This document shows, one piece after another, positions 4,676 to 24,690 of a DNA stretch of 64,000 nt (positions are counted from its first letter, which is position 1; each line of letters opens with the position of its first letter). The DNA lies in the NCBI GenBank assembly GCA_965217865.1, contig CBDCJO010000002.1, positions 4,992,001 to 5,056,000 of the forward strand, in the 5' to 3' direction. A program made the translations under genes and the position numbers. A model generated the notes under the pieces. The model was not told the DNA's origin. It saw only the letters and a list, made by a program, of their open reading frames with translations, and did no database searches. The DNA is from Candidatus Latescibacterota bacterium. GTDB lineage: Bacteria > Latescibacterota > UBA2968 > SICM01.

Positions 4676-4701
4676 CAATTCTGCGCGCGCGCGCAGAATT
4701 G
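4676..4701. repeat. Perfect 26-bp palindrome inside the DUF1016 coding region
   Basis: CAATTCTGCGCGCGCGCGCAGAATTG is its own reverse complement; encodes ILRARAEL just before TWSHY. Confidence 0.95.
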
Positions 4702-5532
4702 ACCTGGTCGCACTACCGAAAACTGATGAAAATCCCGTCGGATAACAAACGATATCTCTTTGCAAAAAAAGCAGATAGACAGGGTTGGAGCAGCCGGGAA
4801 CTGGCCGCGCAGATACAGGCCGGATCTCTCCCGGCGAAGAGCGTTCAGCAGCCCGAAAAGGGTCCGATCATCCGACTCCAAGCCAAGCGGGGACGGCTTT
4901 TCACCTACCGGCTGATCGAGGCTCCGAGCGGAAGGGGACTGCGGCTGGATCTGGGGTTCGGAATCCTTCTAAAAAGGTCACTAAATCGGCTTGGTAACCC
5001 CGAAGAAGGCTCGTTTGTGGAGGCGGTTCGGGGTCCGGATGACGGGGAACCGGTTTTCAGGCTTCGGACAATTCGCGACAGGCGGGCATTTTATACGTAC
5101 TTGGCGTACGTGGAGCGTGTAATCGACGGGGACACCATATGGCTGGACGTGGACTGCTGTTTCCAGGTGTGGAGCCGGCAGAAGGTGCGCCTGAGAGGGA
5201 TCGACACGCCGGAGCTTCGGACCAGGGAGGGCCAGGAGGCGAGGGCATTCGTGGCGTCAGCGCTTTCAGGGAATGGGTCTGTGGCGATCACGACGACGAA
5301 ACCGGACAAGTACGACCGGTATCTGGCCGACCTGTTTTATCTGCCCGGAAAAGGGAAGGCTGAAGATGCGGTGAGAAACGGCCGGTTTTTAAACGGGGGA
5401 GCTGTTAGGAAGGGATACGCAAAGAGGCATTGAAGATTGAAGAAATCAATAAGGCCACAAGAGGGCCGCCTTTCCGATCCCCGAATCACGAATCACGATC
5501 CACGGCCTCACATATTTGATGCCAGATTGGGG

Positions 5533-5568
5533 TTGACTCGGCTTTGAATAGTTGATATATTCAACTAT
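5533..5568 (+). promoter_or_regulatory. Sigma70-type promoter with overlapping inverted-repeat operator, probably leaderless
   Basis: TTGACT (5533-5538) N17 TATATT (5556-5561); ATAGTTGA-N5-TCAACTAT (5548-5568); ATG at 5569. Confidence 0.7.
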
Positions 5569-5937
5569 ATGAATATTTCAACCGATTGGCTGGGCGAGAT
5601 TCGCCGATTGCCGTCCAGCAAACGGGCTGTGGTCCACGAACCGGAAACGCCGAGATATTCGCAGGCCCGAACCAAGCTTCGCTATCTGATTAACCAGGGG
5701 ATATACATCGGCTTCCAGAAAAGTCCTGAAAAGCACAGGGAAATCGAGATCGCTGTCTGGGCACCCCCTGATGCAGGAAAAAGATCCGGGCACTATGGTT
5801 GCTTTCGGGTATTCTTTAAGGGCGGTGAAGTCCTAAGCGCTGTCCTTTTTTGTTATTATGACGGAACTGAAGGGTCTCCGGGTTTCACATCCCGTGAGAA
5901 GGCGCAAGTTTTCGCCAGACAACAGGGTTTTATTTAA
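5569..5937 (+). CDS. Hypothetical protein, candidate toxin
   Basis: 122-aa ORF directly after the promoter and 10 bp before an HTH gene; no family recognised. Confidence 0.6.
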   Translation: MNISTDWLGEIRRLPSSKRAVVHEPETPRYSQARTKLRYLINQGIYIGFQKSPEKHREIEIAVWAPPDAGKRSGHYGCFRVFFKGGEVLSAVLFCYYDGTEGSPGFTSREKAQVFARQQGFI

Positions 5938-5947
5938 GGAGAAAAGA

Positions 5948-6418
5948 ATGGCTAAACTGAGTGAGAGAAATTACAAATATCAGGCTGCTGGACGAACCTG
6001 GGTAGTGCCGAAGCTCAATCTCGCAAAGATGCCCGATGGTACAGTGGCAATACTGGAGAAAGAGATTGATAGGATACATCGGGCAATTGCGAATGAGATC
6101 TGCGGGTCGCCAGAGAATCTCTCAAAGGAGGAGCTTGAATTCCTATGTGATGTTGCTGAGACTCCCTTCTCGCAAGTTGCTGACTACCTTGGTGTGCACA
6201 AGAGTACGCTCACTAAGTGGCGCAGAAGTGAATTACCAAAGAACGCTTTGAATCTTCTTCTCAAGAAGTGGTTCTGGTTCAAGCTCTTTGGGTCATTCGT
6301 TGGCAATTATACAGTGAGGTACAGAGAGCTAGAAGATGAAAGAACATTCTTGGCTCACGCCAAAAGTGAGGCAATTGGGAAGAAACTCGCTGAGTCAATA
6401 AAAAAGATGACGGCTTAG
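5948..6418 (+). CDS. XRE-type HTH protein, MqsA-like antitoxin architecture
   Basis: AAGGAG RBS at 5936; LSKEELEFL...SQVADYLGVHKSTLTKW helix-turn-helix after a beta-rich N-terminus. Confidence 0.7.
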   Translation: MAKLSERNYKYQAAGRTWVVPKLNLAKMPDGTVAILEKEIDRIHRAIANEICGSPENLSKEELEFLCDVAETPFSQVADYLGVHKSTLTKWRRSELPKNALNLLLKKWFWFKLFGSFVGNYTVRYRELEDERTFLAHAKSEAIGKKLAESIKKMTA

Positions 6419-6759
6419 CCTTAATGCGGCATTAATCGCGTCCCCGTAACGAAGAGAATCTCGCCGGGGTTGGTGTTTGAAGCATTCAGGGCTTATTCCA
6501 TGAGTCCACATTCTGTGGCCTGATGGAAGCCAGCTTCAGTCTGGCTTGGTGCCCCAGAAGCGAGGGGCTTCAGCCCCACGCGACGGTTGCCGAATGCCGA
6601 ATTAAGGTTAGTTATGCATAGAAAGGTTTAACGTCAATATACCTTTAAGCGTCTTAAATAATTGCGCATAATTTCTGGAGAGTTTCGTTTCAACGAGCCT
6701 GCTCCTTTCCTGTAGTCAATGGCTGAACGATCTCTGTGCGTAATATTTTGATCGACGCT

Positions 6760-7300
6760 TCACGCTGCCGCTGCCACTTTTTTTGTGCCACTTCCGTCTC
6801 ACGGTTTTCCTGCCACTGCCACTGCTTTTCCCCTGACTTCCGACCTCTGGCCCCTGACGTTGCTCTTCCTGCCCCTGCCACTGCTCTCCCTGGCCCCTGA
6901 CTTCAGGTTTTGACTTTACCTGACCTCCGACCTCTGGCCACTGCCCTTGCCTTTCCTGCTACTTCCACCTGCCACTGCTCTCCCTGACCCCTGACCTTTT
7001 ATACGCAAATATTTATGATGTAAACGACACCCCATGCTTGTACGTGGACTGCGGTTTCCAGGTGTGGAGCCGGCAGAAGGTTGCCTTTTTGAACCCCGAA
7101 TCACGATCCACGAACCCCGGGTTCTCCGATCCCTGACCTCCGACCTCTGACCCCTGCCTTTCCTGCCACTGCCACTGCTACTGCCTTTGCTTTCCCCGTT
7201 TCACCTCTCACGGTTTTCCTGCTACTGCCACTGCAACTGCTTTTCCCCTGACCTCTGACTTCCAGTTTTGACTTTCCCCGACCTCTGACCCCCGACCCCT
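6760..7300 (+). repeat. Pyrimidine-rich mosaic of short degenerate repeats with an embedded thermonuclease gene fragment
   Basis: Many CTGACCT/CCGACCT/CTGACCC and TGCCAC units; 7042-7081 matches 5147-5186 at 39/40 nt. Confidence 0.85.
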
Positions 7301-7302
7301 GC

Positions 7303-7479
7303 TTATCGGTGCATACCTTGCGGCATTCCTTCGCTACTCATTTGCTTGAACGGGGAACGGATTTGCGTTATATTCAAGAATTATTAGGACATAAGAGTTC
7401 TAAGACCACCGAAATCTACACCAGGGTCACAACCCGAGATATCGGTAAGATTCAGAGTCCTCTGGATAGTTTAATGTAA
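7303..7479 (+). pseudogene. C-terminal fragment of a tyrosine recombinase (integron-integrase/XerA-like)
   Basis: Manual translation [58 protein letters not shown]: HxLRH, LLGH, catalytic Tyr, SPLD tail; N-terminal part absent. Confidence 0.9.
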
Positions 7480-7515
7480 CCGTCAAAGGTGAGTTCATCC
7501 TAAAAACGATTTCTC

Positions 7516-7638
7516 CTATAGCAAGGCATTCACGAACATATACCGGTATCTTCTTCGTGGGGAGGTATCTGCGAAGGGCGGGGAATATCCCGAAATTAAG
7601 AAATCTACGTAGGAGTTCGGGAATACCGTAAGTTAGGT
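7516..7638 (+). other. attC-like site directly after the integrase fragment
   Basis: GGCATTCACGAAC (7525-7537) pairs with GTTCGGGAATACC (7615-7627); ends in GTTAGGT (7632-7638); left core degenerate (CTATAGC). Confidence 0.6.
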
Positions 7639-7675
7639 GCCATGGTTGACATCAGCAAACTTCCTGAAGAGCAAC

Positions 7676-8470
7676 ATGAATGCTAAGTCGACTTGCGCTC
7701 TCTGCCTCACTCGGACGGAATTAGTCAACAGCCATCTGATCCCTGCGGCACTATACCGCCAGATTCGCGAGCCCCAGCAACTGAATCCCAACCCTGTCTT
7801 GATTTCTAAATCTGGAGCACGGCTCACAAGTGATCAGGTCAAAGCGCGTCTTCTTTGCAGTGATTGCGAAAATCTACTTTCCAGAGAAGGTGAGGACTAT
7901 GTTCTTCCGAGATGTGCAAGGAAAGACGGAGGGTTCAAATTACGGGACGACATACTCAAGGGCACTTTGATTGAACAGTCTCCGAGATACAAGGGCTACG
8001 AAATTGGCTCTACATTAAGGCAAGGGATCACCAAACTCCTCCACTTTGGCTCCGGTGTGTTTTGGAAGAGTTCCGTGGGCAAGTGGAAAGACCGGGGAAG
8101 GATGGTGAAATCCATCGATCTTGGGCCATATGAGGAAGAGTTCCGTCGGTATCTTCATGGGCAAGCACCTTTCCCTCTCCAAAGTCGTATGATGCTTCAG
8201 GTATCCGACAGCCCCAATCCTGACCTTGTAATTACTTTCCCTCATCGGACGAAACTGCGAGGAATGTTTAGGTACAAATTTCAGATACCAGGCCTGCAAT
8301 TCGTTCTTTTCGTTGGTGGCAAAATCCCTCACGAAAAGTTCACGCTTGCTTCGAGCACTTGCCAATCAGTGTTTCTTTGCGATTTGCACGACGATGGAGC
8401 GTTTCGTGGCATGCTTGATTTGGTGAGACAGGCTGGGAAACTGAAACCAGCAAGGCGAAAGAGGAAATAA
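7676..8470 (+). CDS. HNH-like zinc-binding protein in a gene cassette
   Basis: CALC...SHLIP...LLCSDCE..S pattern; cassette bounded by GTTAGGTGCC (7632-7641) and its exact complement GGCACCTAAC (8481-8490). Confidence 0.7.
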   Translation: MNAKSTCALCLTRTELVNSHLIPAALYRQIREPQQLNPNPVLISKSGARLTSDQVKARLLCSDCENLLSREGEDYVLPRCARKDGGFKLRDDILKGTLIEQSPRYKGYEIGSTLRQGITKLLHFGSGVFWKSSVGKWKDRGRMVKSIDLGPYEEEFRRYLHGQAPFPLQSRMMLQVSDSPNPDLVITFPHRTKLRGMFRYKFQIPGLQFVLFVGGKIPHEKFTLASSTCQSVFLCDLHDDGAFRGMLDLVRQAGKLKPARRKRK

Positions 8471-8658
8471 GGTCATCCACGGCACCTAACAAGGCACTCC
8501 CAAGCTTCGCTGACGCTCCGCAGAAACCTGCCTTTGTATCTTTTGTCTGAGATCGCCCGAAAAAACGGGGGCAAGGTCGAAGCAAGATCCTGGTTGCCTG
8601 TAGGGTTGAGAAGGGATACATATTTTGGGATATCCCTGACCTCACAGGAGGAGTAAAG

Positions 8659-8994
8659 ATGGAGCAACTGTCCTCAAACAGTGACCCGGTCAAGAAGCGC
8701 AGGAGCTTGTCCCCGGAACAGAAGTATGAGATTTTCCTTGAAGCCAGCCGGGGAGATGTTCCCATTGCACAGGTGCTGCGGAAATGGGGCATTCATTCCT
8801 CGGATCTAAAGCGTATTCGTGAGTCGGTCAAGTCCGGGGCCCTCAAGGAGTTCAAGGGTCGCCGGAGCCGCAAGCCGATGGTATCGGCTGAGGAGGTGGA
8901 GCAGCTGCGCAAAGAGCGGGCACGCCTGGAGCAAACGATCATTGAGCAATCTGTGGAACTTTCCCTGCTAAAAAAAAGTGTGAATGGGATCTGA
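8659..8994 (+). CDS. IS3-family OrfA (HTH)
   Basis: LSPEQKYEI...AQVLRKWGIHSSDL HTH plus leucine-zipper tail ending LLKKS. Confidence 0.85.
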   Translation: MEQLSSNSDPVKKRRSLSPEQKYEIFLEASRGDVPIAQVLRKWGIHSSDLKRIRESVKSGALKEFKGRRSRKPMVSAEEVEQLRKERARLEQTIIEQSVELSLLKKSVNGI

Positions 8995-9017
8995 CAGGCC
9001 CGATCAAGGGCCACCGG

Positions 9018-10016
9018 GTGCAAGCTGAGGTCAAACGCGAGATCCTCTTAATGGTCCATCGGGCCAAGGAGAAAGGGGTGAAACTCACCCGTTCTTGCGA
9101 GATCCTACAGCTTCCCCTCCAGCGGTATTGTGCCTGGAGCCGGCGAGATCGAGAAGAGAAGCTGGATGGGGTGTCGGACCCGCTTTTGGATGGGAAGCCC
9201 GGGCCCGCCCCTGATGAGGCCCTACACGGATTGCTGAGGGAGGAGAAAGAGCAAATCTCGGCCCTCTTAAGGGATGAGACCTATGCCGATCTGCCTCCCC
9301 ATCAGCTGGCGGTGGTAGCCTCAGAGAAGGGGGTAGTGCAGGCCTCGGCCTCCACACGCAGGAAACAGGTGAGGACGCCGGTCAAGCAGAGCAAGCCCCA
9401 GGTCAAACCTGAAGGTCCTAATCAGGTCTGGAGCTGGGACCTGACCTACATCCCATTTTTCGGTTTGTTCCTGTATTTTACCGCCATTCTCGACGTGTAT
9501 TCCAGGAAGATCGTAGGATGGAAGCTCTCCTTCAACGCGACCGTGGAGCAGGTCAAACAGGCTTGGGATCAAGCCCTTGCCAACGAAGGACTGCTGGACC
9601 TGGACACTGGGCCCATAAGCTTGACAGCCCTCTCAGATCACGGATCTCAGATGAAGGCCAAATCGATGGCCCAATTCTTCAAGGACCTGGGCATCTCGCA
9701 GCTGTTTGCCCGATATCAAACACCCACGGACAACGCCTGGATCGAAGCCTTTTTCCGGACATTCAAATACGACTGGCTGCGCTTCCAGGACATCTTCACA
9801 TTCCATCAACTGGAAGGCCTGATTGATTCCTTCATTCACAGCTACAACGCCGAACGCTATCACGGGGCAATACAGTATGTCACGCCTCTTCAGAGGCATA
9901 AAGGCCAGCATCAAAAGATTCTTCACCACCGACAAGGTCGAAAGGAGGAGGCTCGGCAGCGCCGCATAGAAATCAATCGGCAAAGAACATCCCAGACCAT
10001 CCACAAGGCTGCCTGA
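9018..10016 (+). CDS. IS3-family OrfB DDE transposase
   Basis: PNQVWSWDLTY, ILDVYSRKIVGW, SDHGSQ, DNAWIEAFFRTFK, YN.ER.H. Confidence 0.92.
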   Translation: MQAEVKREILLMVHRAKEKGVKLTRSCEILQLPLQRYCAWSRRDREEKLDGVSDPLLDGKPGPAPDEALHGLLREEKEQISALLRDETYADLPPHQLAVVASEKGVVQASASTRRKQVRTPVKQSKPQVKPEGPNQVWSWDLTYIPFFGLFLYFTAILDVYSRKIVGWKLSFNATVEQVKQAWDQALANEGLLDLDTGPISLTALSDHGSQMKAKSMAQFFKDLGISQLFARYQTPTDNAWIEAFFRTFKYDWLRFQDIFTFHQLEGLIDSFIHSYNAERYHGAIQYVTPLQRHKGQHQKILHHRQGRKEEARQRRIEINRQRTSQTIHKAA

Positions 10017-10159
10017 ATCTTGCTTGGACCTTTATCTACTTTTCTCTTGTTATCTCAGAATAGATACAGTTGGCAGGTCGGGAGTGCCGGGAACGTTACA
10101 CGCCAGCGGCACAAGCTCTTGAAAGAACCACCACGCAGACATTCAGGGATATAAAATCT

Positions 10160-10528
10160 ATGACACTAATACTGGGCGTCTGTGGGAAAGACTTTCTAGT
10201 GGTCGGAGCGGATTCCCGACGTGTTGAGGAATCCAGTGATGGAATGGAGATCAAGGATGGTGTACAGAAGCTCTTCCACCTGAAGGACCTCCTATACTTC
10301 TCCTTCTCTGGCCAAAGGCTGATTCCTGCCGCAATTCTTAAGAGCTATCAAGAAAACCGAATTCGGAAACCCAAGACATTCTCAGATTTCATTGAAGCCT
10401 TCAGTAGCCTGGCCCGCCACATCAGGGAACACACACCTCATCCGGTAAAGGCCAACCAGTTCGCCGTATATGGATTTGACCAGGAGAGAAGGACATTCCG
10501 GATGGTGATCTTTCATGAAAGTATTTGA
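10160..10528 (+). pseudogene. Proteasome-beta-like Ntn hydrolase in a cassette, probably truncated
   Basis: MTLILGVCGKDFLVVGADSR: Thr1, Asp17 and a downstream Lys (VQK); only 122 aa before an IS200-like remnant. Confidence 0.6.
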
Positions 10529-10534
10529 ACTTGG

Positions 10535-10746
10535 ATACCCCTTCCTTTGGAAGGGGAGGAAAAGTTTAGCTTGCTGAGGGTAAGCTAAAAGGCTGTTTTG
10601 TCCGTACCGTAGTCGAAAAGGTAACTTCTAAAGTGATCAGAGGATATATTCGGTTTCATCTTCAAGAGCAGAAAGGGCCCCTACAGTTGGATCTGTTTGG
10701 GGAGGGGAGTGGTTAATGCCCCGCCCTTTGGGCGGGGTGATTTACT
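10535..10746 (+). mobile_element. Internally deleted IS200/IS605-family remnant
   Basis: Hairpins CCCCTTCC-TTT-GGAAGGGG (10538-10556) and GCCCCGCCC-TTT-GGGCGGGGT (10718-10738); TnpA-like tail GCFVRTV..VTSKVIRGYI. Confidence 0.65.
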
Positions 10747-10793
10747 CTGGTAATGACTATCAGCCTTTGGAGCCCCACACGTCATTTTTCGCG

Positions 10794-11000
10794 CTAGCAG
10801 CCTGTTGAAAAAGTGCGTTTATGCCAAGATGACTGTTGTCTTTCCTTGTGGTTTGGTCCTATGATATATCAGGTTCAAACTGAGAAGGGAGGACGAGCAA
10901 ATGGCAATGGGAAAACGAGGACGACAGAGACAGGAAAACCTGTTCATCGCATCGAACACTTTGGTGAAATTTCCGGGTCATCCCTTTGCGAAGCCTTAAG
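10794..11000 (+). mobile_element. Left-end remnant of an IS1182/IS5-like element
   Basis: CTAGCAGCCTGTTGAAAAA end; 32-codon stub MAMGKRGRQRQENLF...LVKFPGHPF at 10902-11000. Confidence 0.5.
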
Positions 11001-11226
11001 GGCCAGAAGAAGATCTTTATCTTGAGATCACCATCCGAGGTCAGAACATTCTTAGGCACAATGAAACACAAGGCAGTCAAACAACTATGAAGAATCATAA
11101 AGGGAAATTCTGGCCCTTTTGCTCTTTTGACTTTTCCAAAATTGGAACAGGCTCTTAACACGCCGCTTGCGGCTCGTGCCTGCGGCCCTCGACCAAACCC
11201 ACTTCGTGGGTTCGCAAGCGGCTAAA

Positions 11227-11685
11227 CTACATGCGGAAAGTCAAGAGCAAAGTTGACGATTTCGAGGTTGGATGAGATTTTTTATGCCGGTTTTCTCAGC
11301 GTCAAGGGGTGTAAAGTGGACATTCTTACTATGTTCGGAGCGCAGTTCGCCCTTATGGTGCAGGACCGGTCTTTGAAGAGGGGCGAAGCTCCCGTGTGGG
11401 GGGTGGTGTCTTCCGATACCAACTTACATCCGCGGCCGGCACTCTTGTTTGTGTGAGTAGGTGTGCCGGTCTTCGCGCATTTTCTAATCCGATCCAGGAA
11501 GACGGGGAGGCCTGCGGATCTGTTAGCCGAAGCGACTCCTATCGGAGCCCTCCTCTCAAGCCAGTTCTGCAGGCCGCCCCTGGCCGCCTTGGAAGGCGGC
11601 AGCTTGTGTAACCGGTCCGGCAGGAGACTGCACCGGATGTGAATCGAGCAGCGATGTCAAAGAGCGAGTGTGACCGCGGCAGCGG
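11227..11685 (-). ncRNA. Candidate bridge/seek RNA region of the IS110 element
   Basis: About 460 nt without a credible ORF downstream of the transposase, rich in short stems; IS110/IS1111 elements are known to encode guide RNAs in such regions. Confidence 0.5.
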
Positions 11686-13017: not shown

Positions 13018-13229
13018 CGTATACCTCCAGCGTTGAGGGTTGAGTTTGCTTGCGCTTGCCGAATCTTAAGACACCTTGCCTTGCAAGGGAAGATTCAGCC
13101 CCTCAACGCTGTTTTTTCCTCCTTTACTCAATATAGAAATCGTTAAATGCAAGCAGCGCAAAGACAAACCCCATAAACCATACACTCTTGCTCTTGACTG
13201 AGCAATCCTGCAAATCGTCGGAGGCAAGT

Positions 13230-13682
13230 ATGCAACATGTGAAGTTTACTTCAGATTATAAGATACCGATGCTGGGATTAGGGACGTGGGGCTTGCGTGG
13301 GCATGCTTGCAAGCAGGCGGTGAAAGAGGCATTGAGTCTTGAGTATACCCACATCGATACGGCGTGGATGTATGAGAACCAGGGAGCGATCGGAGAGGCG
13401 CTGAAGGAGTCTGGGACTGACCGAGGTAGGCTTTTTATCACATCTAAGGTGTGGTGCACCGACCTGCACTATGACGGGGTGTTGGCGCAGTGCGAGGAGA
13501 CGCTACGGGATCTACAGACAGCGTATGTGGATCTGTTTCTGATTCACTCGCCCAGCGAGACGGTGCCGATGGCAGAGACGTTCAAGGCACTGAAGCGACT
13601 CTTCGAGGAGAGGAAGGTTCGGAGCGTTGGGGTGAGCAATTTTACGGTGGTTCATCTGGAAGAGGCACATCCGGGTTCGTGA
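13230..13682 (+). pseudogene. Aldo/keto reductase, 3'-truncated
   Basis: LGLGTW, HIDTAWMY, LFITSK, DLFLIH, GVSNF then stop after about 150 aa. Confidence 0.85.
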
Positions 13683-13702
13683 GCCACTGAACGATTTATG
13701 AA

Positions 13703-14479: not shown

Positions 14480-14581
14480 AAAGGGATTGCTTAACCGCCA
14501 AATGCACCGTATTTGGGGGACGCGCAGCAATTTTAGCTCTGTACGTTTGGTCACGTTTCTTGTTGCTTCAAGCTTGGGGGC

Positions 14582-15900
14582 TGTATCTATTCTGAGATAA
14601 CAAGAGAAAAGCAGATAAAGGTCCAAGCAAGATTCAGGCAGCCTTGTGGATGGTCTGGGATGTTCTTTGCCGATTGATTTCTATGCGGCGCTGCCGAGCC
14701 TCCTCCTTTCGACCTTGTCGGTGGTGAAGAATCTTTTGATGCTGGCCTTTATGCCTCTGAAGAGGCGTGACATACTGTATTGCCCCGTGATAGCGTTCGG
14801 CGTTGTAGCTGTGAATGAAGGAATCAATCAGGCCTTCCAGTTGATGGAATGTGAAGATGTCCTGGAAGCGCAGCCAGTCGTATTTGAATGTCCGGAAAAA
14901 GGCTTCGATCCAGGCGTTGTCCGTGGGTGTTTGATATCGGGCAAACAGCTGCGAGATGCCCAGGTCCTTGAAGAATTGGGCCATCGATTTGGCCTTCATC
15001 TGAGATCCGTGATCTGAGAGGGCTGTCAAGCTTATGGGCCCAGTGTCCAGGTCCAGCAGTCCTTCGTTGGCAAGGGCTTGATCCCAGGCCTGTTTGACCT
15101 GCTCCACGGTCGCGTTGAAGGAGAGCTTCCATCCTACGATCTTCCTGGAATACACGTCGAGAATGGCGGTAAAATACAGGAACAAACCGAAAAATGGGAT
15201 GTAGGTCAGGTCCCAGCTCCAGACCTGATTAGGACCTTCAGGTTTGACCTGGGGCTTGCTCTGCTTGACCGGCGTCCTCACCTGTTTCCTGCGTGTGGAG
15301 GCCGAGGCCTGCACTACCCCCTTCTCTGAGGCTACCACCGCCAGCTGATGGGGAGGCAGATCGGCATAGGTCTCATCCGTGTGGGGCCTCATCAGGGGCG
15401 GGCCCGGGCTTCCCATCCAAAAGCGGGTCCGACACCCCATCCAGCTTCTCTTCTCGATCTCGCCGGCTCCAGGCACAATACCGCTGGAGGGGAAGCTGTA
15501 GGATCTCGCAAGAACGGGTGAGTTTCACCCCTTTCTCCTTGGCCCGATGGACCATTAAGAGGATCTCGCGTTTGACCTCAGCTTGCACCCGGTGGCCCTT
15601 GATCGGGCCTGTCAGATCCCATTCACACTTTTTTTTAGCAGGGAAAGTTCCACAGATTGCTCAATGATCGTTTGCTCCAGGCGTGCCCGCTCTTTGCGCA
15701 GCTGCTCCACCTCCTCAGCCGATACCATCGGCTTGCGGCTCCGGCGACCCTTGAACTCCTTGAGGGCCGTTGCTCCATCTTTACTCCTCCTGTGAGGTCA
15801 GGGATATCCCAAAATATGTATCCCTTCTCAACCCTACAGGCAACCAGGATCTTGCTTCGACCTTGCCCCCGTTTTTTCGGGCGATCTCAGACAAAAGATA
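14582..15900 (-). mobile_element. IS3-family insertion sequence, copy 2 (inverted, degenerate)
   Basis: Near-identical reverse complement of 8535-10068 with most of orfA deleted, a frameshifting deletion in orfB and the terminal 2 nt of IRL missing. Confidence 0.9.
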
Positions 15901-16569
15901 GGACCCCCAGTGCCAGATTCCCGCTGTGGCTGCTGGTTGTCGGAATAATTGCTTATACGACCCTGTTGAGCACACTCTCAGCCGTCGGATCCGCGTTGTT
16001 GTTTCGGTATGCTGCGCGGCAGCGACCTCCGGCGGTAGTACGGTCGGAGGGTTGACCCGCGCGCCGGCGATCTAATCAGAGATCGCGGACCTAGGCCGGT
16101 TCCCCGGGACGGAGAATGAAATTCCGGGTTTCGCCGCCTCCCACGCGTGAAGCGCCTTACTTGCCGTTAGTTTCGACTGAGTATCAAATATAGATCCCCG
16201 CTGGACAGGTTGTGTGGCGGGGATTCCCGTCAAAAGCAGCCTCCCAACCACCTCCAATGACATACACCTATTCTATTATTCTATTTCCCCTATCTGCGCT
16301 CAGATCAGCAAAGCCATGAATTACCGGTAGAAAAACACTCTTGGCCAGGCATCCACGTGACCTACAGAAGAACGCCATCACGACGCTTCGTTTCATCAAG
16401 AAGTACTTGACATCAGCCTGAGTCTTGATATTTTATTCGATGAGTTTGCTGGGGAAGCCGCCAGTCCGCGGAAAGGGTCTCAGGCCCACCCCACCTCCCG
16501 CTATGTCCGACATATACCTTCTTTCTGCCCGCCGTGCGGACACCGGGCGCTTTCAGAAAGAGGGTTCCC

Positions 16570-18057
16570 ATGTCTAAGCTTCCCGCAAGTCCCAACCTAG
16601 TTTACCTCCGCAAGCAGGCGCGCAATTTCCTCAAAGCACTCCAGGAGGGTGATCCTGAAGCGCGCTCTCGTGTTATCGAGGGACACCCGCGCCTATCTTC
16701 CAACTCTTCAGACCCGGAGGTAGAGGAACTCGGGCTTGTCGACGTGCAGCTCGTCATCGCACGCGAGTACGGGTTCGACTCCTGGGCGAAGATGAAAGCC
16801 CACATTCTCAACGTTTCTGACGAGCTGATTAGCCGATTTCGTGAAGCGTTGATCCAGTACGATGTTGAGGCAACACGCCGATGTCTAGATGAATGTCCAG
16901 ACTTGGTCAACCTGCGTTTGCCAGATGGAGATGACCCTCTCGCGCCCATCACATCGGAGTCTGGATTCCAGACGCCATTGCACATTGTTGCGTATCATCG
17001 CAACTGGATACCCGCACATCGTGATCCCCGGCCTCACATTGAATTGACCCGCTTACTCATCGAAAGGGGCGCCGACGTCAATGCCTCCGACAGCGAAGGT
17101 GAGGGCCCGCTGGTCCTTGCAACTCACGAGGGTTCGATTGAGTCTATGAAGCTCCTGCTGGAAGCCGGTGCCGATCCAAACATGGTGGGACATGGCGGTG
17201 GGAGCGCCTTAAGCTGCGCAGCCGTACACTGTGACTGGGATCGGTGTGATCTCCTAATGGCTGCCGGCGCCGAACCAGATCTTGGAACAGCAGCAATGAT
17301 GGGAGATTTCGATCGAGTTCAACATCTATTGTCAGCATCCGAGTACGCGAATGATACGCTGCTTCAAGCACTTGATGGCGCCCTACGTTTTGGCCATCAG
17401 GAGGTCGCGCGGATCTTGGTGAATCAGGGCATCCCACCCTCAAGCGCACATGCAGCAGCGTTGGGCATGGATGACCGTGTTAAGCAAATGGTTGCTAACA
17501 ATCCACAGCTTGTAACGAATCCGGACATTGGAGAGGACCCACTCGCGGCGGCGGCTCTGAACGGCCACACTAATCTGGTCCTATGGTTGTTGGACCACGG
17601 CGCTGATCCGAATCATCCCGATGATGATAATGCCGCTCCGCTGCATCAATGTGCCATGGGTGGGCATATCGCCGCGGCGGCGGTTCCTGGGCTCGTAAAC
17701 GCGGGCGCAATGCTTCAGGCCATCCATCGCGGTTTTTCGCCCCTTCGGCGGGCGTTATCTACCGGCAATCTCGCTGTGGCGTTGGCTCTGATTGACGCGG
17801 GAGCAGATGTCAATGAGGCTACAGACGAGGAACCGAATCGGCTATTTCAACTCGCCGACGCTGAACGAAGTGGACAACCTCTGGAACTCTACCCGACGGT
17901 TATCGAGGCATTGATTCAACGAGGTGCAGGAGTCAACGAGACTGATACGAGGGGCCGAACATCATTGGATGCAGCGATAGCGGCCATCAAACCACACTGT
18001 GCCGAAATTCTTCGTCGCCACGGTGGTATGACCTCGCAGGAACTTTCGACGGCGTAG
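16570..18057 (+). CDS. Ankyrin-repeat protein with LPxxPNLxxLRKQA N-terminal domain
   Basis: TPLH, LIERGADVN, LLEAGADPN, LLDHGADPN repeats; IAREYGFDSWAKMK; followed by GCATAAC attC-like start at 18058. Confidence 0.88.
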   Translation: MSKLPASPNLVYLRKQARNFLKALQEGDPEARSRVIEGHPRLSSNSSDPEVEELGLVDVQLVIAREYGFDSWAKMKAHILNVSDELISRFREALIQYDVEATRRCLDECPDLVNLRLPDGDDPLAPITSESGFQTPLHIVAYHRNWIPAHRDPRPHIELTRLLIERGADVNASDSEGEGPLVLATHEGSIESMKLLLEAGADPNMVGHGGGSALSCAAVHCDWDRCDLLMAAGAEPDLGTAAMMGDFDRVQHLLSASEYANDTLLQALDGALRFGHQEVARILVNQGIPPSSAHAAALGMDDRVKQMVANNPQLVTNPDIGEDPLAAAALNGHTNLVLWLLDHGADPNHPDDDNAAPLHQCAMGGHIAAAAVPGLVNAGAMLQAIHRGFSPLRRALSTGNLAVALALIDAGADVNEATDEEPNRLFQLADAERSGQPLELYPTVIEALIQRGAGVNETDTRGRTSLDAAIAAIKPHCAEILRRHGGMTSQELSTA

Positions 18058-18228
18058 GCATAACAAGCGGATCGAGACGGACCGGTCAGGCTACCCTCCC
18101 ATAGATACGTTTTCTTGCGGGGATTTTCAACAATAGCTATCTTCTTTTAACAAGCAGAGAATCACGAAAAACAAAACGTGTGACGTCCGCTCTATTCTTC
18201 ATTTCGTGATGACAACAACCAACACAGC

Positions 18229-18342
18229 ATGTAACAAGACGGTTCCCGGCTCCGCTCCTTCGTCGCTCCGGCCCAACTTGGCCTCACCGCACCGAAGACC
18301 CAACCACCCAATGGCCAAGTTCGGGAACCGCGACCGTTAACT
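18229..18342 (+). other. Intact attC-like site
   Basis: ATGTAAC-AAGA-CGGTTCCC...AACTTGGCC...GGCCAAGTT-C-GGGAACCG-CGACC-GTTAACT. Confidence 0.75.
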
Positions 18343-18387
18343 GCCATACAGTTTTTTGACTTATGGTTTGAGTATAAGGGGCAAAAA

Positions 18388-19169
18388 CTGATTTCGAAGC
18401 CTAAAAACACCTTGGCCCTGAATATGCGTCGCAATTTAAAGATCACAGCATTGTTGACGCTTATCACCACCGACCTCCCTATCCCCCAGAGGCTTTTGAA
18501 TTCCTTTCAGAACTCATTACAGACGAACCAAGAAGGACGCTTGATGTCGGATGTGGTACAGGAGATATTGCTCGAGGGCTGTTAAATTTTGTTGACAGGA
18601 TCGATGCGGTAGATTTTTCGGAGGGAATGATCGAAAAAGGCAAACGTTTACCCGATGGCGATAATTCCAAACTCAGGTGGATCTGTGGTCCAGTGGAAGA
18701 AGTGCCATATCAGTCCCCCTATGCCTTGATTACAGCAGGAGAAAGTCTTCACTGGATGTCTTGGGACATTGTTTTGCCACGATTCAAAAAAGCGCTCACT
18801 CCAAGAGGGTATGTGGCACTGATAACTCGCAGCAAGGGCATAAATAGTCAAGAAGAGATTGATATCATTAATCGGTTTTCCACGAATAAAGATTTTCAAC
18901 CATACGATATGATAGGTGAATTGGAGAAGCGTGGCTTGTTTCGGACACAGGGCAAGAAGCAGACAAAGCCTATTATATGGCGTCCTTCAATTGATAAATA
19001 TATCGAAATGAGGCACTCACAAAATGGCCTTTCCCGAGATCGGCTGGGAAAAGAGAATACTATTGCATTTGATGCCGAGTTGAGAGAATTATTGCTGAGA
19101 AATTACAATGATGAAAGATTAGAGTTGGAAATCCGCGGGAGCGTAACATGGGGAACCCCTACGCCATGA
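18388..19169 (+). pseudogene. Class I SAM-dependent methyltransferase cassette with apparent 5' frameshift
   Basis: Frame upstream of ORF 18627 reads HLGPEYASQF..VDAYHHRPPYP...LDVGCGTG but is closed by TAA 18402 at an A5 run; cassette bounded by GTTAACT (18336) and AGTTAAC (19219). Confidence 0.7.
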
Positions 19170-19218
19170 AATAACTGTCCGCCCCGTTTTGCCTTCCCCT
19201 GACAAAAACCTGTAAAGC

Positions 19219-19285
19219 AGTTAACACAACACTCCCGAGCTTCGGCCCGTTTCGGGCCTGGCCGTCCGACGGGGTCGGCTCAGGT
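19219..19285 (+). other. Partial attC-like site
   Basis: AGTTAAC-ACAACACTCCC start resembles the 8484 site; internal hairpin GGCCCG-TTT-CGGGCC; right arm not found. Confidence 0.5.
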
Positions 19286-19401
19286 CATGGGGTTGGAACG
19301 GCCGGGGATGGAATTGTGAAAAACTCGCCGAACCAGGTTTCGCATGGGACGTCGCTATCGGACCCCGGGTCAAGGCCATGGTCCGCCTCGCAGGTGAGGA
19401 G

Positions 19402-20553
19402 ATGAACAATCCGTACGAAAGCGTGAACTGGCAGAGTACGATCAGAGTCGGATCCGCAACCCATATACACCTAGACAACCAGAGCGACATGGATAACGGG
19501 TATCGTTTTGGCCTAAGGCATTTACCAATATCTAACTACTACCCGTCAGCGCCTTATGACGCGGACACCCGGCTCAGTGATTTCCGGTTGCGTCAATGGT
19601 GGGGAATCAAGCGCCACGGAGAGCTGTTGGATCCGCCCATCAATTGGAACGGCATCATCACCTGGCCGGATGAGTTCGAAGCGCCGTACAGATCGGAGTT
19701 TCCCTTTACCGAAACGGACCCTGTGTTCACGAAAATCCCTGAGGATGTGATCTTAAGCCACAATGCGGAGCATCATGGGTTCACCAATTCAGGAGCCCAC
19801 ATATGCAGTCCGGGCTCCTCCTTTGCCTCAGGAACCTTCGATGTACGGGGGCGGCGTTATCATCTGAAGGAACACGGCTTCCCCGTGGGCTTTGGAGGCA
19901 CGTGGCAGGAAGGTTTTGAAGGCATGCTCCAGGCCATCGACTATTCCGACGGGGGAGGAATCACGATCGCTCACCCGACCTGGTTTTCCCGGTTTTCGGA
20001 CGACCGCGTCTTGGAGATGCTGGATTTTGACGAGAGGGTTCTTGGAATCGAAATCTACAACGACTACTCAGCCACGAGAAACTGGTTCGAGAATCCTGAC
20101 TACAAAGCCCCATCCGAGTCAGAACCCGGCTTTTCTCTGAACCTCTGGGACCGGATTCTGTCCACGGGTCGAAGATGCTGGGGCTTTTGCGTGCCCGATC
20201 ACAGTGTCTGCAAAGTCGGAGACTGGCACGGGCGAAATATCCTCCTTGTCTCCGAATTCACGGAACACGACTGCCTGAAAGCCTATCGCCAAGGCCGGTT
20301 CTACGGGTGTTTGAAGGGCAGTAGTCTCACAATCACGGACTTCACGGCCACGGATTCCTCGATCTCCGTCACGGCCAGTTCCACAGCAACGATCAAGTTC
20401 ATAACCGATGCCGGCCTGGCAAAATCGATTACGGGAGACACCGCCGTTTACGAGTTGCCGCAAAAAATCGGCGCCCCTGATGTGAAATATGTACGCGTGG
20501 AACTCGAGGATGAATCCGGAGAACGCCTCTTCCTGCAACCAGTCTTGATGTAG
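19402..20553 (+). CDS. Hypothetical protein, PHP-like metallophosphoesterase
   Basis: GAGGAG RBS; THIH, NAEHH, IAHP, GIEIYN, PDH metal-binding pattern. Confidence 0.6.
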   Translation: MNNPYESVNWQSTIRVGSATHIHLDNQSDMDNGYRFGLRHLPISNYYPSAPYDADTRLSDFRLRQWWGIKRHGELLDPPINWNGIITWPDEFEAPYRSEFPFTETDPVFTKIPEDVILSHNAEHHGFTNSGAHICSPGSSFASGTFDVRGRRYHLKEHGFPVGFGGTWQEGFEGMLQAIDYSDGGGITIAHPTWFSRFSDDRVLEMLDFDERVLGIEIYNDYSATRNWFENPDYKAPSESEPGFSLNLWDRILSTGRRCWGFCVPDHSVCKVGDWHGRNILLVSEFTEHDCLKAYRQGRFYGCLKGSSLTITDFTATDSSISVTASSTATIKFITDAGLAKSITGDTAVYELPQKIGAPDVKYVRVELEDESGERLFLQPVLM

Positions 20554-20929
20554 CAGCCGAGCTTGAGGAGCTTATGACGAAGTCATTTGCAGCACTCGCG
20601 GAATCGTACAGGAAGGCTCTTGCGCCTTCGATCCAAAACACAAACCCGAAGACCAGTCGACACGTTCTACTCAGAAAGAATTCGACCACCCGAACACCCC
20701 TGAATGGGTAAAGACCAAGGCGTCGGGAATGGTATGTACTCTTCCGGTAGGCCCTGAATACTCAGGAGAGACAAAGGCTAACGAGGATAGAGGCGATCCT
20801 TGCGGGCGAAGGCAAGGTCGAGAACATCAGGCAGGACGCGTACCACGTTTTTGAGGCACAGAAGCAAGGCTCCTACTTCATCACTACAGACTAAAGGATT
20901 CTGACATTTGAACTCGTTTGGGCAACACG

Positions 20930-21110
20930 ATGGGAGCTGAAGCAAACAGAGTGATCGCCCCAATCCTAGGTCTGCCCGAACTACCCGTTATTGACTTTCC
21001 ACGCGATGATGTTTCGGGATTACTTGCGTGAAAATCCTGATGAACAAAGAAAGTATGAGGGGCCCTATGACTCTGTGCGTTTTTCAAAGATCCAAAAGTA
21101 ATGTGTTGGC
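20930..21110 (+). pseudogene. GrpB-family remnant
   Basis: Fragment FRDYLRENPDEQRKYE near 21012-21060. Confidence 0.45.
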
Positions 21111-21139
21111 AATTCCAGTGAAGTGAAGAGGGGGTAAGT

Positions 21140-22429
21140 ATGGATGATAAGATGAATATTCCTGAACTACATGCTCAGGTTGCTCGCCTGGAGAAAGAGT
21201 TAAGAGAAGCTCGCGACCTGTTGGCGCAGGCAACGCACGATTCTGAATCGGTGACTGCTGAATTGAAACTTACGCGAGCTTATGCACTCAGTGCTGCAAA
21301 AGATTCGATTGAGGAAGTGATTGAAGGTTGTGCGGGTTCGCTGAGTCGTTATGGGTTCTGTGTGATTGACGATGTGATCCCGCCTGATGAGGTGGGTAAA
21401 ATTCGTGAAGAAGCGGTCGCCGCTTCAGCAACGGTTGCTCAAAATATAAAAGCGATACAAGACTTGCTTGGCGACCGGGAATTGTCTCCTGAGGAAGTTT
21501 TACGTGAGGCGAAGGCAAAAGGTGTGGAAATGAGGCCTGTGCGCAGAGCAAGGCACCCACCCAAACCGCCGAACGATATTATATGGCTGCCGAAGTATGC
21601 ACAGCATTTGGCCAATCCTGTTGTGACCGCAGTGGCGCGTCATGTGCTCGACGATCACTTGCGTATTGCACAGTTGCATTCGCGGATGATTGTGGCGGAC
21701 AAACCCGATGGTACGTTGGGTGGATATGGCTCTCCCAAAACACGAGGGAATCCTGAGACGCGTGAATGGCATACAGATTGGCCTCACGATTTGTCTGCTT
21801 ATGGAAGAGATAATCCATTTCGAAATGCGGGCTGTATTCGCCAGCCTTTTCCAAACATTGCGATGTGTCTGGTTATGATCTGGTATTTGACGGATGTAGA
21901 TGAAACTTCTGGCGGGACGTGGGCAGTGCCTGGGTCGCATAGGGACAAACGCAATCCGCGTGGACCTGCTGATTGTATTTCGGTTACAGCGCCTATTCCT
22001 GGCGATATGCAGGTGAGTGCAAAGGCAGGGTCTGTTTTTATTCAGGATTCACGAAATTGGCACGGGTCTGCGATGCATAATCCCAGTGGGCGAGATCGGG
22101 TTGCGATCGTTAATCGATGGGCCCCATGGTGGTTGGCGGTCGATGATTATGCACCGGGCAATGTGTATAGCACCAATATGGTATGTCGTCCACTCGCGCA
22201 TGATGAGTATCTTGCGTTGCCTAAAGATCTACAACCGCTGATGCGCCATCTTTGCCCAGATGAACACGATACATTGCAGGAGCCGGTACTTGAACGTGCC
22301 AAAGAGTCTGGTTTGCGCGCTCAGTCATGTTTTCAGCAACTGGAAGAAGACCCAGATTCATTGGCAGATGCAAACGCTCACATTCGTGTGCCGGTGGATC
22401 GGTTATGCGATTCTACCCAAAACCTCTAA
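21140..22429 (+). CDS. Phytanoyl-CoA dioxygenase (PhyH) family Fe(II)/2OG oxygenase
   Basis: GFCVIDDVI, WHTDWPH, WYLTDV...GGTWAVPGSH, AGSVFIQDSRNWH. Confidence 0.88.
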   Translation: MDDKMNIPELHAQVARLEKELREARDLLAQATHDSESVTAELKLTRAYALSAAKDSIEEVIEGCAGSLSRYGFCVIDDVIPPDEVGKIREEAVAASATVAQNIKAIQDLLGDRELSPEEVLREAKAKGVEMRPVRRARHPPKPPNDIIWLPKYAQHLANPVVTAVARHVLDDHLRIAQLHSRMIVADKPDGTLGGYGSPKTRGNPETREWHTDWPHDLSAYGRDNPFRNAGCIRQPFPNIAMCLVMIWYLTDVDETSGGTWAVPGSHRDKRNPRGPADCISVTAPIPGDMQVSAKAGSVFIQDSRNWHGSAMHNPSGRDRVAIVNRWAPWWLAVDDYAPGNVYSTNMVCRPLAHDEYLALPKDLQPLMRHLCPDEHDTLQEPVLERAKESGLRAQSCFQQLEEDPDSLADANAHIRVPVDRLCDSTQNL

Positions 22430-22650
22430 CGAGGGAAGAAGCACGAAACTTCATTCGAGTGGTGTTAAGTCAATATAGGAAATGGGATTTTGGCTGGTGG
22501 GCCTCACATTACAGGAAGTGGACGGAGAAGAAGAGCTAGAGTTGGGCTACATGGTAAGGAGAGAATACTGGTGAGAGGGAATAGCGACGGAAGCAGCGAG
22601 GGCTTGTAGTGAGTATGCTTTTGATACGCTGGGATACAACCGAATCATAG
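22405..22650 (+). pseudogene. RimJ/RimL-like GNAT remnant
   Basis: Fragments MRFYPKPLTREEA, ELELGY...REYW*EGIATEAARAC.EYAF.TLG in broken frames. Confidence 0.6.
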
Positions 22651-22773
22651 GGCGGCCCTCCCTGGACGCCCAAACACATGGAACAACACTGAGATACTGG
22701 TGAGGGATCCGCTGCTGCCGAGCCCGCGGCTGAGCGGGATGTTATTCCGCCTAACGATTGGATGGAGGCAACG

Positions 22774-23280
22774 ATGCTTCAGAGACTCGTCGCACGTGAC
22801 GGCGAAGAGTTTGCGGTTCGCTCTACTGGGGGCAATTGGCTGCTTGCTTGGCATTCGCCGATTACGGTTCCCCCGGGTAAAGCCCATGGAGCGAACGGCT
22901 TCTGCGTGACCGCCGACGATGGCGTCGTGCTGATCAGCAACGATGGTGAGCGATGGGGCTGGCCAGGGGGTCGTCCCGAGGGTGACGAGTCTTGGGAGCA
23001 AACCTTCCGTCGTGAGATCTTGGAGGAGACGTGCGCCGTGGTGGGTGACGCCCGGCTCCTGGGTTTTTGTCGGTCCGTGTGCCTTACCGGCCCAGAGGAA
23101 GGTCTCGTACTGGTCCGGTCTGTGTGGCGGGCGGAAGTGGAGTTGATGCCGTGGGAGCCCCGTTTCGAGATTAGACATCGTCGGGTCATCCCGGCGAGTG
23201 AGCTACCGTCGCACTTTTGGATGGAAGAGGGATTTGAGCCCATTTATCATCGGGCGCTAGCTGAGGCAGGGTTGATGTAG
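22774..23280 (+). CDS. NUDIX hydrolase
   Basis: PGGRPEGDESWEQTFRREILEET Nudix box; GGAGG RBS. Confidence 0.9.
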   Translation: MLQRLVARDGEEFAVRSTGGNWLLAWHSPITVPPGKAHGANGFCVTADDGVVLISNDGERWGWPGGRPEGDESWEQTFRREILEETCAVVGDARLLGFCRSVCLTGPEEGLVLVRSVWRAEVELMPWEPRFEIRHRRVIPASELPSHFWMEEGFEPIYHRALAEAGLM

Positions 23281-23351
23281 GGATGCGCTGGCAATTTCTC
23301 TATACGTCATAAATAATTGCGCATATTTGTAAGATTCGTTATCTTAATACT

Positions 23352-23783
23352 ATGAAAAAGCTCACATTATCCGAAGCCGAGCGTGTCGTCCTCGTGCTAC
23401 AGGATGAGATCCGGCGATCTACGGAGTCCCGCTATGGCCATCGCCTGCACGGCATCTTGCTGATTGCCCAGGGAAACAGTGGTCGGGAGGTCGCCCGACT
23501 GCTTGGAGTCGCTCCTCGAACCGTAGCCTACTGGGTGCGAAGGTACAAACAGGGGGGGCTGGCCGAGCTCGTGGGGAGGGAGCGCTCCGGGCGTCCGCGG
23601 CGGCTGAGCGAAGAACAAGATGCGCAGATCGATGTGGCTCTGGGGAAGAGACCGAGGGACTTTGGCTTGGCCGGTAATGTCTGGACCGGCAAGACACTGG
23701 TGGCATTTATTAGGGAGCAGTGGGGTGTGATGCTGGGAGTACGGCAGTGTCAGAGGATGTTTCGGGAAAAGCAAAAACAGTAG
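23352..23783 (+). pseudogene. IS630-like transposase N-terminal HTH fragment
   Basis: HRLHGILL...EVARLLG...TV.YWVRRY..GGL...RSGRPRRL, WTGK, GVRQCQRMF; no DDE domain follows. Confidence 0.75.
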
Positions 23784-24690
23784 CAGTGGCAAGAAAGGCA
23801 AGGGCAGGGGTCAGAGGTCGGAGGCCAGAGGTCGGGGAAAGAAAGACCTTCCACCCATCCAGACCGGAATACAGAATACAGGAGTTAAAAAGACCGCCAA
23901 ACGTGAGTCGGGAAGAGCAGTAGCAGCAGACAAAGGCTGATGAAAAAAAAGCGAATACGGGGGTCAGAGTCAGGGGAAGTCGAAACCGCGAGCATCCGGG
24001 GGCAGATTTCCCAGTTCGAAGGGATCGGCTCCCAACTCATAAAACGAACCTATTACTAAATAGAAGCATATGGCGAGGGCAAGATTCTGTCAAATCAGCT
24101 TAGCATAAATATTTACAGTGTCTTAGATGGTAAAATCGCACAGGTTCTGGCTGCAGGTAAGGAAAGGGCCAGGGAGGCGGTGGAACAGGAAAAGGCAAGG
24201 ACGTGACCAATTCTGCGCGCGCGCAGAATTGGAAGGGGCCAGAGGCCAGAGGCTAGGGGTCGGAAAAAGCAAGGGGTCAAGTAGAGGACTTTGTATGAAT
24301 CTCTTCGGTTCCACCGGTTCTTTACAATTTTGAACGCGCGTTCAAAATTGACCTGGAGGAGTTACCGAAGCAGGTGAAAAATCCAAAGGAAACTGACCTG
24401 TATCTCTTTGACCAGAAATCAGATAGGCAAGGTTGAAACAACCTGGAACTGGCTGGAAGTCAGGGGTCAGTTGTCGGGAAAAGGAAGGGGTTAGCGAGAG
24501 GATTTTGTATTAATCTCTTCGGTTTCATCGGACATTTCCAATTCTGCACGCGCGTGCAGAATTAACCTGGGCGGGAAAAGGAGTAGCAGAAAGGTCGTCA
24601 AACGTGAGAGGTGAGATGTGAAACGGGAAAAGCGGAACGAGAAAAGCAGTGTCAGTGGCAGGAAAAGCAAAGGCAGGAGTCAGAGGAAAT
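23783..24690 (-). repeat. Purine-rich mosaic of short repeats, reverse complement of the 6760-7300 mosaic
   Basis: For example GGGGTCAGAGGTCGGAGG, GCAGTGGCAG, GTGAGAGGTGAGATGTGAAACGGG. Confidence 0.8.
24095..24570 (+). pseudogene. Degenerate, partly duplicated copies of the DUF1016 N-terminal coding region with three palindrome variants
   Basis: GGTAAGGAAAGGGCC...GTGGAAC and TTGTATGAATCTCT align with 4477-4507 and 4642-4655; palindromes at 24207-24232, 24325-24350 and 24540-24563. Confidence 0.85.

Follow-up and report, generated by a model that had tools for sequence, protein, structure and literature searches.

A palindrome within the reading frame of a nuclease gene is described here from a 64,000-nucleotide stretch of the genome of a Candidatus Latescibacterota bacterium (contig CBDCJO010000002.1, positions 4,992,001 to 5,056,000), hereafter the window; the genome is called G000 where coordinates outside the window are given. 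The gene (protein P0001; body at 4420..5433, forward strand, read from its translation) joins a DUF1016_N domain to a staphylococcal nuclease (SNase) domain. The palindrome, at 4676-4701 with its core at 4677-4700 and without a strand of its own, consists of AATT, a 16-bp dyad with the halves CTGCGCGC and GCGCGCAG, and a second AATT, and encodes the loop ILRARAEL. The arrangement would be that of a ParB-fold autoregulator and its operator, in an undescribed architecture in which the operator lies in frame and diversifies with its reader. The palindrome is very probably the binding site of the protein encoded by the same gene, and with a probability of roughly 0.7 its main job, as predicted from sequence, would be autorepression of a costly nuclease through an autogenous operator.

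Symmetry of the site across the family

The SNase-type family was assembled from 190 loci, which gave 176 aligned reading frames, 146 unique genes and, after dropping those with more than 85% local identity, 136 non-redundant genes. An in-register palindrome (at least 10 of 12 arm pairs) was present in 96/136 of these DUF1016_N-SNase genes, against an average of 1.2 palindromic genes (maximum 6) after synonymous recoding, a null of the kind that had been proposed as a check when the palindromes were first noticed; at other gene positions 15/123,568 reached the same threshold. Together with a second, held-out set of SNase genes, 153 palindromic genes carried 148 different 16-mers. Taxon labels of the SNase-type loci were mostly Omnitrophota, with Latescibacterota, Verrucomicrobiota and Planctomycetota also represented, and phylum searches on the Verrucomicrobiota side and on the G680 side found no genomes beyond the centre (1/201 each). 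Longer fusions, for example to an integrase, were not found among 566 candidates, which is weak evidence, and carriage of the SNase fusion by phages was not found among the best 80 of 190 viral relatives, which match the nuclease domain alone.

Mismatched arm pairs did not favour G-T (13 G-T vs 21 C-A). In a hairpin the central pair would be part of the loop; it was complementary in 132/153 genes. Both results argue for a double-stranded dyad rather than an RNA hairpin. The peptide would tolerate the palindrome because the encoded segment (residues 87-94) is a loop, placed between helices 72-84 and 96-102 in the AlphaFold model.

A residue-to-base code

Mutual information was scanned over 2,360 pairs of alignment column and half-site base outside the palindrome peptide in the 96 palindromic genes, with h denoting the half-site position after AATT. 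The top-ranked pairs were 76-h2, 125-h7, 77-h4, 118-h8, 100-h6, 304-h5, 71-h4, 157-h6 and 73-h3. Phylogenetically independent pairs of genes, taken from a tree built without the tested columns, retained 73, 76, 77, 100, 125 and 71 (p 1e-4 to 0.04), and changes in the same direction far outnumbered opposed ones for R/K73 with G (14.1 vs 0.1, p 1e-4), an aromatic residue at 76 with T (11.3 vs 0), R100 with C (11.9 vs 0.3), V/I125 with A (10.9 vs 0.1) and R/K77 with G (7.1 vs 0.7, p 0.04). Columns 74, 78, 118, 157 and 225 failed the independent-pair test; these and column 304, all with high raw scores, were dismissed as clade effects or single outliers.

In the held-out set, comprising 57 palindromic of 80 non-redundant new genes from 111 loci, 11/12 preset rules succeeded (p 3e-3 to 7e-11), and the twelfth had one case. 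Pooled counts were R73-G 36/37, K76-G 10/10, E76-C 7/7, Y/H/W76-T 72/76, Y77-C 30/32 and R/K125-C 32/33. Arg or Lys with G on either strand, Glu with C, and an aromatic residue or Val with T make up the chemistry expected from established protein-DNA recognition. With each gene left out in turn, its own site ranked at a median of the 94th percentile, and 90/153 genes fell in the top tenth. For the window protein, again with its own gene left out of training, six residues predicted CTGC-CGC; its own site and the allele found at 24540 in the window ranked first of 96 half-sites, and the allele at 24325 stood at the 84th percentile. By this covariation, residues 73, 76, 77, 100 and 125, and weakly 72, predict individual bases of the half-site of their own gene.

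The code was also transferred to YhcG, a DUF1016 family with a PD-(D/E)XK nuclease, in which 36 of 62 non-redundant genes bear a palindrome. Five rules held strongly there (one for 73, two for 77, one for 100, and R/K or V/I at 125), with counts of 13/13 for R73-G, 13/13 for E/Y77-C, 18/19 for R/K125-C and 11/13 for V/I125-A.

Since each base of the site also affects the loop peptide, residue-to-residue contact was a serious alternative, and residues of the loop peptide predict the partner about as well as the bases do for positions 72, 77 and 125. Where Ser92 is fixed, R/K73 accompanies TCN codons in 11/11 cases and AGY codons in 0/3. That the code follows the base rather than the peptide is indicated by this split of the Ser92 codons and, with more weight, by the non-coding sites that the code locates.

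Cognate sites upstream of genes that lack one in frame

Forty-five genes had no in-register site. In 12 of them a site shifted within the frame still fitted the code, at a median of the 90th percentile; of the 33 others, 4 had a matching non-coding palindrome 39-116 bp upstream. Among further genes without an in-frame site, 4/7 had a matching upstream palindrome and a fifth had one that was perfect and wider-spaced. When an upstream site was counted as cognate at or above the 94th percentile of the 153 matrices, a match was found in 0/144 genes with an in-frame site and in 8/40 without. The upstream sites of loci L033 and L093 overlap -35/-10-like hexamers of a sigma-70-like promoter, and in L137, L599 and L601 a TATAAT or TATACT hexamer lies 2 bp beyond the site. 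This either-or placement, in frame or at a promoter, is the main reason for reading the palindrome as an autogenous operator. Among the options raised by the sequence-only reading was a binding site that lies in the coding DNA of the protein's DNA-binding domain, and the code and the promoter-placed cognate sites together support it strongly. Palindromes of another type (TTGA...TCAA, 25 bp) are repeated upstream of the gene in L150 (-464 to -83) and in L135, and do not match the code.

Fold and domains of the protein

Pfam yielded DUF1016_N (PF17761; 66.8 bits vs a cut-off of 32.8) and SNase (PF00565, also above its cut-off) alone for the window protein. The PD-(D/E)XK domain PF06250 had no Pfam match in it, SNase occupying that place, and a CTPase domain was likewise absent from the Pfam result, a long helix at residues 5-49 preceding the helix-turn-helix (HTH). 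The domain content therefore lacks the N-terminal CTPase domain which, with a ParA partner, would mark a ParABS system, no search aimed at ParA having been made. PADLOC PDC-S02 models match the N-terminal domain with E-values down to 1e-26, covering residues ~4-160 rather than the whole protein.

The AlphaFold models were confident (pLDDT 90 and 93). The N-terminal model matched the DNA-binding domains of Noc, ParB and Spo0J with Z 10.6-8.6 over 92-98 residues, above unrelated entries; the best match had Z 10.6 and a root-mean-square deviation (rmsd) of 2.8 with 96/108 residues aligned. Foldseek E-values for this domain were just 0.03 or weaker, and its profile had Spo0J as its best match in the PDB (E 4.7e-4). 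As modelled, the N-terminal domain has the ParB/Noc DNA-binding fold, consisting of the HTH and the helices that follow. According to the Spo0J/Noc profile alignment, residues 72-77 belong to the recognition helix, residues 97 and 100 to the DNA-contacting helix that comes after it, and residue 125 begins the last of these helices. In ParB, helices 4, 6 and 8 contact parS, and R173, N178, G201 and R204 are contact residues (PMC7383237); the equivalence of residue numbers with Caulobacter ParB is one that I infer from the profile alignment.

In the window, on the forward strand, the start of the recognition helix (4633..4650, residues 72-77) is the predicted reader of half-site bases 1-4, on both covariation and the profile alignment. 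Arg100 (4717..4719) aligns with a parS-contacting arginine of ParB and covaries with half-site base 6, and Ser125 (4792..4794), which begins helix 125-134, covaries with base 7. The architecture of the site fits a 16-bp dyad bound by a dimer, and dimer binding is predicted.

The C-terminal domain (5092..5430, forward strand) contains DGD, RLRGIDTPE and DKYDRY motifs and has the thermonuclease fold (Foldseek E 8e-7 at an rmsd of 1.7), and its catalytic DxD, R, D, E and R motifs align; these nuclease motifs were conserved in 70-79 of 80 genes chosen without motif selection. By fold and catalytic motifs this domain of the family belongs to the staphylococcal nucleases, and nuclease activity is predicted.

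Copies and solo sites away from intact genes

The four palindromes first noticed in the window, at 4676-4701, 24207-24232, 24325-24350 and 24540-24563, are all present, and each equals its own reverse complement. The sequence-only reading had explained the symmetry of the three distant ones by compensatory changes in both arms, of which the symmetry stood and the compensation did not. At 24207..24232 there is a solo site (no strand) of the CTGC allele, which is symmetric through a 2-bp central GC contraction leaving a 22-bp core, with no compensation involved. The other two are perfect palindromes in decayed gene fragments of paralogue A2 type on the forward strand, one at 24283..24453 with the TTGAACGC allele and one at 24487..24573 with the CTGCACGC allele, in the latter of which gene similarity stops ~10 bp beyond the site. 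Their diagnostic flank bases match paralogue A2 (G000:C2:1659687-1660712) and not the window gene, and their peptides, ILNARSKL and ILHARAEL, are found among the database proteins P0010, P0005 and P0012; these are therefore existing paralogue alleles and not compensated local mutants of 4676-4701. A decayed 5' fragment of a paralogous gene, found by blastn and tblastn, lies at 24101..24202 on the forward strand. Judged by their flanks, the distant copies are remnants of broken genes of a paralogue subfamily in which the site has outlasted its surroundings.

Across non-query loci found by flank similarity alone, the site was kept in 16/17 (12 perfect; flank identities 74-96%), against ~1 locus expected under random decay at that divergence, a comparison that overstates retention because part of the divergence is between paralogues and not due to decay. 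With the recoding null, this supports the earlier inference that symmetry is maintained at the DNA level.

A genome-wide search for AATT-N16-AATT, as had been suggested, found palindromes far above chance, with 45/133 matches having at least 11/12 arm pairs against 2/808 for seven other palindromic 4-mer ends in the same genome. The genome total was 48 sites, of which 29 were perfect, 16 had a single mismatch and 3 had two mismatches, and 24 bp was the sole enriched length among AATT...AATT near-palindromes of 18-32 bp. The half-sites form four groups (CTGC, TTGA, GTGA and TTCC), and hybrids between left and right arms also occur. In addition to five full-length DUF1016_N-SNase reading frames, the genome has one decayed copy and numerous fragments; a second copy of the gene, besides the interrupted one in the window, carries a premature stop. 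Neighbours of solo sites in this genome were mostly ordinary genes and insertion sequence (IS) elements, and 46/88 flank sides of non-gene sites keep at most 7 bp of gene similarity. As side observations, a TTCC-allele gene fragment at G000:C2:4067074-4067350 stops ~30 bp past the site and is joined to a duplicated end of a TPR gene, and a separate REP-like family of perfect palindromes starting GTAGGGGC has 336 motif matches in the genome (for example C2:422649, 730058, 1540405 and 4100190).

Two relatives, G001 and G002, had 11 and 22 pattern matches respectively vs 0 for the control, of which 31/33 were near-palindromic by reading of the listing. All of these have TG at h2-h3, vs 32/153 family-wide, which fits the resident R73/Y76 proteins but also shared ancestry. 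Many are non-coding arrays in which differing alleles are joined via a shared AATT with a 20-bp period, and tandem arrays of two or three operator alleles with a 20- or 27-bp period were seen at L332, L347-L350, L353, L393 and L394; at L393 the sites lie between successive genes of a WYL-YhcG-Cas6/Cas8 island. Genes near the sites of these relatives include toxin-antitoxin, restriction, HNH, YhcG, methylase and Cas genes. Between orthologous non-coding sites of the two, both arms show changes, and in 4/4 orthologous locus pairs similarity is lost within ~5 bp of a site on at least one side. Promoter-like elements were modestly enriched at these solo sites (13/54 vs 10/108), a comparison confounded by the TTG/AATT content of the sites themselves. 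In other lineages, the 989 kb surrounding 96 genes contained 3 extra palindromes, none cognate. Solo sites may persist through decoy binding or through site-directed nicking.

Proposed mechanism and alternative explanations

In the autogenous-operator reading, a ParB/Noc-fold domain fused to a thermonuclease would bind in pairs to its own 16-bp dyad and so keep expression of its gene low, by promoter occlusion at upstream sites and by an elongation roadblock at in-frame sites; I infer all of the steps of direct binding, dimer formation, repression and nuclease cost. Specificity and site would diversify together towards many near-orthogonal variants, and arm-to-arm template switching would probably speed the matching change in the second arm. 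Hairpin templating, proposed by the sequence-only reading as a source of diversification, probably does help to keep the arms matched, as the extended palindromes at G000:C2:2354055, 5161715 and 5376515 suggest (here the arms are copied beyond the site, with the same flank on both sides); it is unable to explain the code.

Several results weigh against this reading. The code rules were picked after the scan of all column-base pairs, and the held-out genes come nearly all from one phylum; with a tree of the N-terminal domain only, the directions hold and 2/17 tests reach p<0.05. The R/K72-G rule is weak (22/38), and the K/R76 rule fails in YhcG genes (4/18). The upstream cases stem from two or three lineages, the upstream site of L158 had no promoter-like match and that of L137 had none listed by the promoter scan. 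In 32/40 genes without an in-frame site no cognate site was detected by this search, which means that the operator is not a universal feature. In this genome, solo sites were not enriched at promoter-like elements (6/43 vs 18/172), and their persistence is therefore not explained by autorepression alone.

The main rival, an unlikely one, also has the protein bind the site, mainly in order to bring SNase nicking just outside the AATT ends, which would turn the site into a hot spot of recombination or insertion, spreading the gene and rearranging adjacent cargo. The eroded flanks of non-gene sites and the breaks at ~5 bp in the relatives speak for it, as do the joining of different alleles through a shared AATT, the hybrid left/right alleles and the position of sites beside toxin-antitoxin, restriction, YhcG and Cas cargo. 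Flank erosion around a retained site yields the same breakpoints, however, and the dearth of extra palindromes in other lineages, the ordinary neighbours of solo sites in this genome, and the lack of common ends or target duplications on visual inspection of six gene copies all argue the other way; promoter-placed sites fit regulation better. Joints near sites in the contigs of sequencing runs were accounted for by paralogous sites elsewhere. For programmed inversion of the shufflon kind, in which an invertase and inverted repeats swap coding segments, no joint at the site was among those listed from contigs of seven runs, contigs being prone to lose rare forms. Fragments of integrases are present close to two gene copies.

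More speculative, and doubtful, is the idea that the palindrome acts as a chromosomal DNA antitoxin, the bound nuclease being restrained and then freed by loss or destruction of the DNA through element loss or phage attack. If that were true, hosts would collect non-coding arrays of operator alleles as decoys or immunity, and an arms race would have made hundreds of orthogonal protein-site pairs that can be read from gene sequence.

It is very improbable that there is no protein reader at all and that template switching during replication keeps a chance palindrome perfect in a tolerant loop. The arm copying past the site at the three loci named above is in keeping with it; such a process cannot yield covariation with residues 10-37 codons away, a fixed length and register, or cognate sites at promoters. 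Just as improbable is an explanation by contacts of residues 73-125 with the loop peptide, with the symmetry serving an mRNA hairpin. The predictive power of the peptide at positions 72, 77 and 125 would suit the contacts, yet the code holds on non-coding upstream sites and splits the six-fold serine codons by base, and neither the mismatch counts nor the paired centre fit a hairpin. The notion that the distant copies are silent donor alleles switching nuclease specificity by gene conversion is largely refuted, as a swap would recode the loop (residues 87-94) and alter the target site while the specificity-linked residues lie outside the palindrome, no difference at 4676-4701 was seen among the rows listed from assembled contigs of four runs, and hybrid alleles such as ILHARSKL in two intact paralogues are left as its one favourable sign, in showing that arms reassort.

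Relation to known systems

KorB-OB and VirB plasmid regulators were among the fold matches of the N-terminal domain. Both proteins are ParB-fold repressors that act on palindromic operators, including in autoregulation; they differ from the present family, in which a single gene encodes a nuclease fusion, the operator is translated within the protein and no spreading domain is present. Controller (C) proteins of restriction-modification systems are small HTH regulators with diversified palindromic boxes that limit a nuclease and fall into specificity groups. Here, by comparison, regulator and nuclease form one polypeptide, the fold is that of ParB and not XRE, the box is usually coding, and no methyltransferase was seen to be required. 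In REP/RAYT systems dispersed palindromes are tied to a cognate protein, an HUH transposase. The family described here has an HTH-SNase protein and no HUH transposase, and its site belongs to a single codon position in a single family, behaves as a double-stranded dyad and not as a hairpin, and is not inserted in unrelated genes. Dispersed palindromes are nevertheless a shared trait with REP/RAYT and with Rickettsia palindromic elements, the latter lying within coding sequence (PMC4316617).

ParB-parS and Noc-NBS (PMC7383237) share with the present family the DNA-binding fold, a palindromic core of 16 bp, contacts (here predicted) made by the recognition helix and by two helices further on, and specificity set by few residues, with arginine reading guanine. 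They differ in that this family has no CTPase/ParBc domain, a fused nuclease and a site in its own reading frame or promoter, and shows 148 different sites among 153 genes where those systems have one conserved consensus.

A further likeness is to YhcG/DUF1016 proteins with PD-(D/E)XK nucleases, which have the same N-terminal domain, carry an in-frame palindrome in the same place and follow the code for the most part, and differ in the nuclease and in a 27-bp site, as opposed to the 24-bp site without spacer of the SNase genes. These YhcG proteins correspond to the PADLOC PDC-S02 candidate defence family. In the literature their N-terminal domain is described as unknown, with no mention of a site, and DUF1016 genes are located close to restriction loci and on mobile elements (PMC1189080, PMC4316617, PMC9881135). 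No account of the palindrome or of self-binding was found in searches of full-text literature outside subscription papers, supplements and the paper that defines PDC-S02.

The domain DUF1016_N, which occurs widely, is uncharacterised and forms part of the candidate anti-phage family PDC-S02; the present result gives it a fold, a predicted DNA target for each member and a testable role. Since each gene supplies both a protein and its cognate 16-bp site, the family would offer hundreds of ParB-fold specificities, linked by a simple code, as a ready-made training set of use for studies of protein-DNA recognition, orthogonal repressors and targeted nucleases. The family also illustrates clearly how a single sequence can be both coding DNA and the predicted ligand of the encoded protein, with target and reader co-diversifying within a gene.

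The window gene and its surroundings

The nuclease gene is split near codon 8 by an IS1595 element (3525..4421, forward strand) with an 8-bp target duplication, TATCATAA. Its first codons, with ATG at 3500, lie left of the element at 3500..3524 on the same strand and match the start of paralogue A2b, and contigs of two other runs join 3516 to 4422 in an allele free of IS1595. A short compensated frameshift near the C-terminus (5395-5420) turns the conserved NGELL of the paralogues into NGGAV. Directly after the nuclease gene are two small unannotated genes (5569-6418), the second with a weak HTH match, which resemble a toxin-antitoxin pair and had no family match above cut-off.

The motif C[GT]TAA-N3-ATTG[CT]GC occurs at 6640-6700 and 23296-23330 in the window, at L337, L365, L366, L393, L395 and L396, and 60-110 bp downstream of three gene copies in G000; 18/50 solo sites lie within 1 kb of 14 occurrences. 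A dif/Xer or attC identity for the motif was unsupported on inspection by eye. Mosaic intergenic DNA of short repeats (GGTCAGA-type 7-mers, GCAGTG-type 6-mers and CACGAAT 7-mers) fills 6760-7480 and 23780-24700, mixed with pieces of an SNase gene, of a tyrosine integrase (7303-7431) and of an IS630-like gene (23352-23783). The open reading frame listing alone shows two pairs of IS3-like transposase genes, nearly identical and oppositely oriented, at 8659-10016 and 14634-15700.

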